DNA from: an uncultured Planctomycetota bacterium | GTDB lineage: Bacteria > Planctomycetota > Planctomycetia > Gemmatales > Gemmataceae | Assembly: GCA_963849325.1 (NCBI GenBank) | Contig: CAWKHF010000009.1 | Location: 352,001-416,000, forward strand | Direction: 5' to 3' | Length of the DNA stretch: 64,000 nt | Shown: positions 54,036 to 56,616 of the stretch, piece by piece | How the letters are laid out: each line of letters starts with the position of its first letter | Numbering within the stretch: the first letter of the stretch is position 1 | Made by a program: the position numbers and the translations under genes | Notes under the pieces: model-generated | Told to the model about the DNA's origin: nothing | Seen by the model: only the letters and a program-made list of their open reading frames with translations | The model's database searches: none

Positions 54036-54180
54036 GCAGCCGAATCTCACGCTTCTCGGCGTGAGAACGGGGGAACCATCAGGTCGGCGAGGGCCGGCCT
54101 TCGGGGCGTAGACCGACTCGTGTGGGTCAGGATACTTTCCATCCCAGCCCGTCAGCTAACCTCGTAGGCAGCCTGGAAGC
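54036..54180 (+). ncRNA. c-di-AMP riboswitch (ydaO/yuaA class)
   Basis: Conserved elements in order: GCCGAAUC, hairpin, GGGGAACCA, GGGG, AGGAUACUUUCC, CCCGUCAGCUAACCUCGUAGGC, then GGAAG able to pair with UUUCC as the pseudoknot. Confidence 0.88.
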
Positions 54181-54271
54181 GTTTTCCGGGCCTATGTGAA
54201 AGGCACACCCGTCTCGCTTTCCGGACGAAGAGCCTGCTCCTTATACCGGCATAGTCGCCACAGGTGTCACC

Positions 54272-56616
54272 ATGTCCGCTCTCCTTGTCTTCGCCAACGG
54301 CGGAGTCGCCGCGCCCTGGGAGTTATCTCTTCCAGGGCAAATCCTCGTGGGGTTCCTCGTCGTCGTGGGCATCCTGCTGCTGATCGCCTGGCTGACGGTG
54401 CGTTACATCCCGAACCAGCAGGCGGCCGTCGTCGAAAAGCTCTGGTCCAATCGCGGTTCGGTGCCGGAAGGCAGCATCCTCGCCCTGGACGGCGAGGCCG
54501 GCTTCCAGGCCGATCTGCTGCGCGGCGGCCTACATTTCGGACTTTGGAGATGGCAATATCGCCTCCACAAAATACCGCTCGTCACCATCCCCCAGGGCAA
54601 GATCGGTTACGTTTATGCCCGCGACGGCGAATCGCTGCCGCCCAGCCAGACGCTCGGCCGCGTCGTGACGTGCAACAATTTCCAGGACGCGCGGACCTTC
54701 CTCGGCCAAGCGCCGGAGGCGGGGGCCGAGAACGCGCGCGGCCAACGCGGCCGGCAGCGAGCCATCCTGCGCGAGGGCGTGTACGCCATCAATCCGGCCC
54801 TGTTCGTGGTCATCACCGAGGACGCCGTCTATCGACTGAGCATGGGAGGCGGAGCACGCGAGTTACAGGTACTGCTGAGTTGGCAGCAGCAGTTGCGCCG
54901 CATCGACGGCTTTAGCCCGGTCGTGGTTGGCGCCTCGATGCGGGTGCGCGAAACGATGGCGGACGCCGAAGCCTTGGACGAGGCCGAGGAGGAGAGAGCG
55001 TCGCTCCGCGCGAAGCGCGGACGCATCGTCGGTGCGCCGATCCCCGAGTCCCCCGTGCCGCTGGATGTGGAAGCACAGCGCGACGTGGACACCATCGCCA
55101 TCGTCACCGTCCAGGACGGCCCATCGCTGCTGCCCGGCGAGATCATCGCCCCCGGCGTCGGCAACGACAACAACGACCCCAACTACCATAACAACTATCA
55201 GGATCCCGAGGCGTTCCTGCGGGCCGGCGGCCGTCGCGGCCGCCAGTACGTGCCGCTGACCGACGGCACCTACTTCCTCAATCGCTGGTTCACCACGGTC
55301 GAGGTCGTCCCGAAAACGGTCGTGCCGATTGGCTACGTCGGCGTGGTCGTCAGTTATTACGGCCGAGTCGGACGCGACCTGTCCGGCGAGGCCTTCCGCC
55401 ACGGCGAGCGCGTCGCCGAGGGCGAGCGCGGCGTGTGGGAACGGCCGCTCGGCCCCGGCAAGTACCCCTTCAACACCTACGCCGGCCAGATCATCATGGT
55501 GCCGACGACCAACTTCGTCCTGCACTGGATCACCGGCCAATCCGAGGCGCATCGCTACGATGAGAGCCTGCGCTCCATTGACCTCGTGACCAAGGATGCT
55601 TACGAGCCGCTGTTGCCGCTGTCGGTCGTCGTTCACATCGACTACCAAAAAGCGCCCGGCGTCATCCAGCGCTTCGGCGACGTCAAGAAGCTCATCACGC
55701 AGACTCTCGACCCGATGCTGAGCGCCTACTTCCGCGACGTGGCCCACAAGAAGACGATGCTGGAGTTGCTGCACCAGCGCGATGCCATCCAGGCGGAGTC
55801 GCGCGAAGAGCTGCGCCGCAAGTTCCGCGATTTCGACATCGAGTGCGTGGACGTGCTCATCGGCAAGCCGGACACGGCCGAGGCCGGCGGCAAGATCGAG
55901 ACGCTGCTGGAACAACTCCGCGTCCGCCAACTGTCGATCGAGCAGCTGGAGACCTATGACCGTCAACGTGCCTCCGCCGACAGGCTGCGGATGCTGAACG
56001 AGGCGCAGGCGCAGGCGGCCATGCAGACGCAGCTGACCAACTCGCGCGTGCAGATCCAGATCGCCGAGAGCCAGGGCGAGGCCGACCTGGCGCGGCGCGC
56101 AAGCAGGCGGAGCAGACGGTCGTGAACGCCGACGCCGAGCTAGCCCGCGCCCGCCGCCAGGCCGAGCAGACGGTCGTGACCGCCGAGGCCGACGGCCGGC
56201 AGCGCGTCCTGGCCGGCCGCGGCGAGGCCCAGCGCGTCATGCAAGTCGGTCTATCCGAGGCATCCGTGCTCCTGCGCAAGATCGCCTCGTTCGGCGATCC
56301 ACGTCTGTACGCCCTGTCGATCATCACGGAGCAGCTGACACACAGTAGTCAGCCGCTGGTGCCCGAGCGCGTGTTCATGGCCGGCGCCAACGGCGACAGC
56401 AGCGGCAGTTCGTCCGGCGCCTCCGGCATGTTGGGGCTGCTGCTCAATCTGCTGGTCGCCGAAAAATCCGGCTTCCAGCCAGTGGACGTGGGCGAGATGA
56501 GCGGTTTGAAGGAGATCAGCGAGCGTCTGACGCGCGACGCCCTGGAGTCGCTGCGCCAGGCATCGCTGGCGCCGCCGCCGGAATCGAAGCCCGCCGCCAA
56601 CGGCCCGACGAAGTAG
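54272..56616 (+). CDS. SPFH/band-7 (flotillin-like) membrane protein; frameshift near 56095
   Basis: N-terminal TM, GEAGFQADLLRGG, GQRGRQ, PGKYPFN, TLDPMLSAYFRD, C-terminal AEA/AE coiled-coil repeats. Confidence 0.85.

Follow-up and report, generated by a model that had tools for sequence, protein, structure and literature searches.

The locus that we describe here lies on the forward strand of a 64,000-nucleotide (nt) stretch of contig CAWKHF010000009.1 (assembly GCA_963849325.1, from an uncultured member of the Gemmataceae in the Planctomycetota), hereafter called the window. It comprises a gene for a large SPFH/Band_7 protein and a 5' leader that a preliminary description of this DNA had taken for a riboswitch of the ydaO class, whose ligand is cyclic di-adenosine monophosphate (c-di-AMP). 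The Rfam covariance model RF00379 (c-di-AMP riboswitch, ydaO/yuaA leader) supports that assignment, matching positions 54028-54185 of the plus strand at 63.4 bits (E 2.3e-12) against a gathering score of 38 and spanning model positions 1-134 of 134. RF00379 is the sole Rfam family above threshold in the window, and a search of the whole genome recovered the same copy with the same result. The elements that had been picked out in the leader (the sequence blocks, the CUCACGC/GCGUGAG hairpin, GGGG, the TAGAAT box, and the ATG) were each found at the coordinates collected in Table 1. In a MAFFT alignment of 28 aptamers from relatives, in which variable inserts are poorly aligned, RNAalifold predicted 24 pairs, 15 of them with compensatory changes. 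Because the score exceeds the curated threshold and the helices covary among relatives, we assign the aptamer to the c-di-AMP class: judged from its sequence, the leader element is by family a genuine c-di-AMP riboswitch, one that would be expected to bind c-di-AMP.

The downstream gene had been called SPFH/flotillin-like, and Pfam agrees: Band_7 (PF01145) matches residues 350-551 of its product at 59.4 bits (cut-off 23.6) and matches full-length orthologs at 53.8 and 63.5 bits. Its ATG, which had been put about 90 nt downstream of the riboswitch, lies at 54272, 87 nt beyond the Rfam match. The gene upstream of the leader, which encodes a hybrid histidine kinase, is divergent and lies on the minus strand, so the leader can serve the SPFH gene alone.

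The pairing of riboswitch and SPFH gene recurs among relatives of the host. RF00379 is present in 20 of 41 genomes (the window's own and 40 relatives), including 9 of 10 from the same genus and 14 of 24 from the same family. Those genomes hold 30 RF00379 loci; the next gene is an SPFH ortholog in 12 of them and an APC permease in 13, and the remaining five are accounted for by one Band_7 gene further downstream, one KdpA gene (L020), one Rpf-like transglycosylase, one DpnII-MboI-like open reading frame (ORF), and one gene of no Pfam family. We also approached the question from the gene itself, using the best 80 of 190 relatives in species-representative genomes, a set whose record titles span Gemmataceae, Pirellulales, Planctomycetaceae, Isosphaeraceae, Tepidisphaeraceae, and others. 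The same leader does stand ahead of many of these orthologs: in 47 of the 80 loci, an aptamer sequence profile detects an aptamer immediately upstream and on the same strand. Rfam confirmed 17 of 18 tested positives of that profile (L064, which carries a long insert, fell short) and none of 19 tested negatives. Finally, a pattern for the variant architecture described below matched at least 120 metagenome stretches; 80 loci stood among the matches listed, 60 of them with an assessable downstream ORF, which was an SPFH gene in 30 (28 by blastp and 2 by tblastn), an APC permease in 23, and unresolved in 7.

Two counts run counter to a general link. The aptamer is missing from 33 of the 80 ortholog loci, among them three Singulisphaera records (two of them Rfam-tested), and 4 of these 33 have less than 300 nt of upstream sequence; across the phylum, RF00379 occurs in just 17 of 151 evenly drawn genomes. 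The link between riboswitch and SPFH gene is frequent, not obligatory, and the riboswitch itself is patchy in Planctomycetota; where it is present, the SPFH gene is its commonest partner. These sets of loci are not independent, as they share ancestry and the metagenome pattern selects one architecture. Nevertheless, given 12 of 30 riboswitch loci, 47 of 80 ortholog loci, and 30 of 60 metagenome copies among the matches listed, the association with the SPFH gene is a conserved one, not a coincidence.

The ydaO-class architecture includes a pseudoknot in which a hairpin loop pairs with the 3' tail that follows helix P1, and it is on this element that the preliminary description erred. It had paired UUUCC (54136-54140) with GGAAG (54175-54179), strands that have the spacing of the Rfam consensus tail. 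Across an alignment of 49 related leaders, 45 of them distinct, the corresponding columns are paired in 54.9% of cells, compared with 55.6% in shuffles, and show no compensatory change; in the window, GGAAG is the 5' arm of an inserted hairpin (54171-54191). In the same alignment, the pairing of the CUUUC loop with the distal GAAAG strand holds in 96.8% of cells over 7 pairs. Two of these pairs have both sides changed (UA to GC in 4 distinct sequences and AU to CG in 5), and an AU-to-GU change occurs in 5 sequences. Fimbriiglobus-like leaders (n = 5; 4 distinct sequences) combine CGUUC with GAACG, and the window's genus group combines CUUUCGC with GUGAAAG; the loop of the pseudoknot hairpin reads ACUUUCAAG or ACUUUCGCA in relatives. 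Another candidate partner, within GACGAAGAG, was set aside, since that block is not kept in the closest leaders.

All 49 aligned leaders share one order of elements: the ACUUUCAAG-loop hairpin, the CCCGUCAGCUAACC core, the P1 3' strand, a variable covarying hairpin, a short linker, and (U)UGAAAGG. The inserted hairpin measures 25-32 nt and folds at -11.4 to -22.3 kcal/mol in 48 of the 49 (the 49th, L068, was recognised by eye), and in hairpin helices 3 and 4, 7 of 8 pairs vary on both sides. The pseudoknot 3' strand consequently stands ~28 nt past P1, compared with ~5 nt in the Rfam consensus, and the Rfam model stops short at the 3' end of this variant. Two leaders of genes other than SPFH (L028 and L025) carry UUGAAAGGGCAC immediately after P1, and relatives from a sister family (L007-L012) have canonical spacing with different strands, CCUCG/CGAGG. 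Because both groups place the strand near P1, we interpret the hairpin as an insertion that displaced it. The pseudoknot that characterises the c-di-AMP class is therefore present, in displaced form. A further variation on the aptamer was seen in L108 (2449-2625), where an insertion of ~140 nt sits inside the aptamer after the first CAGCUAAC copy and the core motif occurs twice; this copy, from the leader of an ortholog, still scores 40.0 bits, slightly above the gathering score.

Table 1. Features of the SPFH locus and related features elsewhere in the same genome (window coordinates unless a contig is named)
Feature	Position	Strand	Remarks
Promoter-like site TTTTCA-17 nt-TAGAAT	53996-54024	+	-10 box 54019-54024, ends ~15 nt before P1
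Aptamer (ydaO-class)	54028-54185	+	Rfam RF00379; P1 = GCC 54039-54041 with GGC 54167-54169
GCCGAAUC	54039-54046	+	
Hairpin CUCACGC/GCGUGAG	54046-54052 / 54059-54065	+	
GGGGAACCA	54070-54078	+	
GGGG	54103-54106	+	
Hairpin GGAU/AUCC	54130-54144	+	Loop ACUUUCC 54134-54140; CUUUC 54135-54139 is the pseudoknot 5' strand
CCCGUCAGCUAACCUCGUAGGC	54148-54169	+	
Lineage-specific hairpin, 8 bp, GCCUGGAA/UUCCGGGC	54171-54191	+	Insertion 3' of P1, ahead of the pseudoknot strand
Distal pseudoknot 3' strand GAAAG	54198-54202	+	Pairs with loop CUUUC 54135-54139
Stem-loop abutting the pseudoknot strand	54201-54235	+	AGGC 54201-54204/GCCU 54232-54235; CGUC 54210-54213/GACG 54224-54227
Shine-Dalgarno-like AGGUG	54262-54266	+	5 nt before ATG
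SPFH/Band_7 (YqiK/flotillin-like) gene, first frame	54272-56125	+	617 amino acids; predicted N-terminal membrane helix, ~300-residue extension, SPFH domain at residues 350-551
C-terminal part of the SPFH gene, next frame	56122-56616	+	164 amino acids
CdaA-like cyclase gene	G000:C1:84770-85128 (L004)		In two ORFs
Second c-di-AMP riboswitch in the same genome	G000:C6:205910-206063 (L002)		48.1 bits

The relocation of the pseudoknot strand behind an extra hairpin, together with a second half-site that deviates from the Rfam consensus (GGGGCG(A/U)AG compared with GGGGUGAAU), raises the question of whether the element is a specificity variant, in which the ydaO fold senses a ligand other than c-di-AMP. 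We consider this very improbable, as the score is well above the curated threshold, the invariant core blocks ACGGGGGA.CC and CCCG.CAGCUAACC.CG are kept, the associated genes are the classical c-di-AMP set, and the genome encodes diadenylate cyclase domains. The cyclase that the preliminary description led one to expect is represented by two DAC-domain loci that score 71.9 and 56.4 bits in Pfam (cut-off 27); one resembles CdaA and the other DacZ, both below NCBIfam equivalog cut-offs. The partner genes other than SPFH (APC permease, KdpA, and Rpf-like transglycosylase) correspond to the known c-di-AMP riboswitch regulon, which the accessible text of PMC7266159 describes as K+ and amino-acid transporters and wall remodelling. 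The second RF00379 copy in the host's own genome precedes an APC-family permease (AA_permease_2, 108 bits) and has the inserted hairpin, the distal UUGAAAG strand, and a GGGCAC...GACGAAGAGCCC block, as in the SPFH leader. We take the APC permeases behind the riboswitch to belong to the family that includes the K+ importer KimA.

The TAGAAT box that had been noted ahead of the aptamer is present at 54019-54024, in a block conserved in congeners. A scan for sigma-70-like promoters found 1 site, against 0.4 expected from shuffles. The ten closest leaders have the common block TTGCAAG-N16-TAGAATAA at a constant distance to P1, and in leaders further removed TATAAT-like boxes stand 12-16 nt ahead of P1, in a comparison that excludes 20 further leaders that were not parsed. 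Because -10-like boxes are conserved just before P1, their sequence argues for a putative transcription start just upstream of the aptamer and speaks against a start downstream of it, the circumstance that the preliminary description had named as counting against its own reading.

Beyond the pseudoknot strand, the abutting stem-loop is a composite stem, GGGC...CGUC-loop-GACG...GCCC in relatives, that recurs in both SPFH and APC leaders and is either an expression platform or an aptamer extension. Within 14 nt past this stem, a run of at least 3 U follows in 22 of 49 leaders, and one of at least 4 in 10 of 49, the longest being U7; in 5 of the 49 leaders behind these counts, the script found no closing GCC. 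The closest leaders also have GCCACAGGUGU(C/U)(A/G)CCAUG in common. Sequestration of the ribosome binding site was tried as a mode of control, since ACACC (54205-54209) pairs with GGUGU (54263-54267) in the window fold, and was rejected as a general mechanism because the closest leaders do not conserve this pairing.

For ligand binding, for the way in which the switch turns, for the level at which it acts, and for what the protein does in the cell, we infer the following. Transcription from the TAGAAT promoter would start a few bases before P1. High c-di-AMP would lock the pseudo-symmetric aptamer, including the pseudoknot of CUUUC (54135-54139) and GAAAG (54198-54202), whose 3' strand the extra hairpin (54171-54191) would have shifted downstream in the window's lineage. 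The locked fold would favour the abutting stem-loop (54201-54235), and SPFH expression would fall, in relatives with a U-tract probably through premature termination or attenuation. At low c-di-AMP, as in K+ shortage or low turgor, the SPFH scaffold would be made together with K+-uptake-type permeases. We favour the OFF direction because SPFH and APC leaders share the post-aptamer block and because K+-uptake-type genes are repressed by c-di-AMP elsewhere, as the available part of PMC6488665 reports for K+ importers in Bacillus. The inverse arrangement, an ON switch in which c-di-AMP raises SPFH expression and the cell makes the scaffold when turgor is high or K+ is sufficient, would suit the lack of a clear terminator in the window, and the stem beside the pseudoknot strand might just as well extend the aptamer structurally. 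It is an unlikely arrangement, however, as the same block precedes APC permeases and another copy of the riboswitch precedes KdpA, genes of a kind that the same part of PMC6488665 describes as c-di-AMP repressed, and as the U-run behind the stem in 22 of 49 leaders is attenuator-like. All characterised members of the ydaO class are, to our knowledge, OFF switches.

As a whole, the locus is best explained by an mRNA that opens with a functional c-di-AMP OFF riboswitch and encodes a ~780-residue, putatively membrane-anchored SPFH protein, and we hold this explanation to be highly probable. Several properties of the window itself weigh against it. The terminator scan called no intrinsic terminator on the plus strand of the leader and no U-run follows the stem; intrinsic termination as a means of control is supported only in part, by the U-runs of relatives. 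The minimum-free-energy fold of the whole leader is not better than shuffles (z = -0.52). The pseudoknot of the window has just 5 bp, its loop being one base shorter than in congeners (ACUUUCCAU compared with ACUUUCGCAU). The SPFH gene, moreover, is in two frames as assembled, with a break near 56093-56103.

This break, an ORF of 617 and another of 164 amino acids where one would be expected, together with the pseudoknot loop and the G-run after GAAAG, each one base shorter than in congeners, could mean that the gene is a frameshifted pseudogene, a decaying relic whose leader no longer matters. Comparative data speak to the contrary. Orthologs from related genomes, five in all, are each encoded by one ORF of 761-807 amino acids that continues through the break; they read EADLARARKQAEQTVV at this point, where the first frame of the window drifts to a stop and the next frame resumes ARKQAEQTVV. 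Behind 56093, contigs of four public sequencing runs have an additional G that closes the frame and restores the reading of the orthologs; one of these contigs, 151 nt long and from run X1, matches the window at every base of 56013-56162 apart from that G, and the other three runs share the insertion. Both halves of the gene are 80-87% identical to intact orthologs and have no further break. The CdaA-like cyclase gene of the same genome is also split, into overlapping ORFs of 215 and 97 amino acids, by what seems a single-base error, and the genome assembly reaches 84.7% marker completeness in 14 contigs. From the extra-G contigs, the second split gene, and this completeness, we conclude that the frame break is probably a single-base assembly error and not the mark of a pseudogene; a relic is extremely unlikely. 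Given these apparent single-base breaks in the assembly, the shortened loop and G-run in the window may be assembly errors too.

The sequencing runs say little beyond this. The highest share of the stretch's words in any run is 0.13, too small to tell habitat or expression. Contigs from RNA libraries of relatives cover the coding region, and the aptamer thinly, although contigs as such neither reveal a start nor prove transcription; a single contig of run X11 covers the inserted hairpin and the pseudoknot strand.

Relatives of the SPFH protein abound: for residues 40-345, 7221 of 7999 scored candidates reach E up to 0.001, and their source labels read 'SPFH domain-containing protein' or, from JGI, 'uncharacterized membrane protein YqiK'. 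No NCBIfam model matches the protein, its conserved N-terminal extension of ~300 residues matches no Pfam family, and a profile search of solved structures gave 0 matches at E up to 0.01. The possibility that the extension is a second SPFH domain found no support in an hhalign comparison of residues 40-215 with 335-560 (probability 0.5%, E 0.11). A protein-atlas look-up of residues 40-345 gave only clusters that are unnamed or called 'Band 7 fragment', at most a lead. The window protein has a hydrophobic stretch at about residues 22-42. An AlphaFold2 model of a full-length congener, built on a 49-sequence alignment, is of low confidence (mean pLDDT 51.1, pTM 0.29, SPFH core below 50) and too poor for fold comparison; it suggests a helix at 19-42 and one long helix at 536-668 (pLDDT about 66-73). 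In some members of the family (L038, L051, and others), the variable acidic linker that leads up to the SPFH domain contains a zinc-ribbon insertion (PF13717), as in CPGCG...KCPSC of L038.

Around the SPFH locus, PAS-containing hybrid histidine kinase/response-regulator genes stand on either side (51380-53812, minus strand; 57336-59839, plus strand), and the upstream one resembles the CckA type, far below equivalog cut-offs. Just past the SPFH stop, a G+C-rich inverted repeat, GGGCCGCUGGCGGC ... GCCGCCAGCGGCCC (56633-56668, plus strand), lacks a U-tract; it may end the transcript, and the terminator scan did not call it. An ORF that begins 75 nt past the SPFH stop (56692-57408, plus strand) carries both DUF2321 (74.2 bits) and a DpnII-MboI-like nuclease domain (74.6 bits). 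The same kind of ORF trails the SPFH gene in 11 of the 80 ortholog loci, all of them from close Gemmataceae relatives. In one relative (L023/L042), a c-di-AMP riboswitch is followed by a 119-residue ORF of no Pfam family and then by a DpnII-MboI-like ORF, with no SPFH gene between.

The closest known systems are the ydaO (kimA) and yuaA (ktrAB) leaders of Bacillus subtilis. Like them, the window has an RF00379 aptamer in the 5' leader on the coding strand, in a host with diadenylate cyclase genes, and sister copies precede an APC permease and KdpA. Unlike them, it places the riboswitch before an SPFH scaffold, neither a transporter nor a wall hydrolase, and it combines a pseudoknot strand displaced by an inserted hairpin with the absence of a canonical terminator and a high-G+C planctomycete host. 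A second parallel is the kdpFABC riboswitch of Bacillus thuringiensis, by which c-di-AMP exerts transcriptional OFF control of a K+-homeostasis operon and which resembles the aptamer before kdpA in relative L020; the accessible text of PMC6488665, the source for this system, reports riboswitch-controlled kdp operons as restricted to Bacillales, whereas the copies described here are from Planctomycetota and stand mostly ahead of SPFH and APC genes.

Bacterial flotillin/SPFH proteins include YqiK of Escherichia coli and FloT and FloA of B. subtilis. The window protein is likewise a Band_7 protein, with a predicted N-terminal membrane helix and, in the low-confidence AlphaFold2 model, a long C-terminal helix; it differs from studied flotillins in its length of ~780 residues and its conserved 300-residue N-terminal extension of no Pfam family. 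We know of no studied flotillin that is under riboswitch control. In Staphylococcus aureus, inhibition of flotillin microdomains selects for loss of gdpP, i.e., for high c-di-AMP (PMC13385884, available part), a result that offers an independent physiological hint of a link between flotillins and c-di-AMP.

The preliminary description was not aware of any earlier account of this pairing, and we found none in the full-text literature that was searchable. That scope does not extend to Block 2010 and Nelson 2013, two papers that reportedly tabulate the genes associated with the ydaO class; the association of this riboswitch with an SPFH gene is apparently unpublished. In the accessible text of PMC6488665, Planctomycetes are missing from the phyla listed as having predicted c-di-AMP riboswitches ahead of K+ transporters, and a survey of riboswitch distribution (PMC5473149) has 0 occurrences of Planctomycetes in its main text. 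The finding thus extends the c-di-AMP riboswitch to Planctomycetota and documents a variant ydaO architecture, in which an extra hairpin precedes the pseudoknot strand and a conserved stem adjoins it.

The role of bacterial SPFH/flotillin proteins is a long-standing question, and a riboswitch is an unusually direct clue to it, as it tells which signal decides when the protein is made; here the clue is a strong one that comes up repeatedly. Through the SPFH protein, turgor signalling would shape the organisation of planctomycete membranes. A broader proposal can be offered tentatively, and we would stop short of calling it probable: in planctomycetes, the large SPFH scaffold may belong to the core of the c-di-AMP regulon, turned on alongside K+-uptake permeases as c-di-AMP drops and acting in K+ and turgor homeostasis, under a riboswitch that would be a distinct structural variant. 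If this were true, SPFH assemblies may enclose or gate transporters or channels, or may protect the membrane during osmotic shifts. The label of 'membrane organiser' would then become a testable hypothesis, namely, that the SPFH protein is needed at low c-di-AMP, under K+ limitation or osmotic stress.

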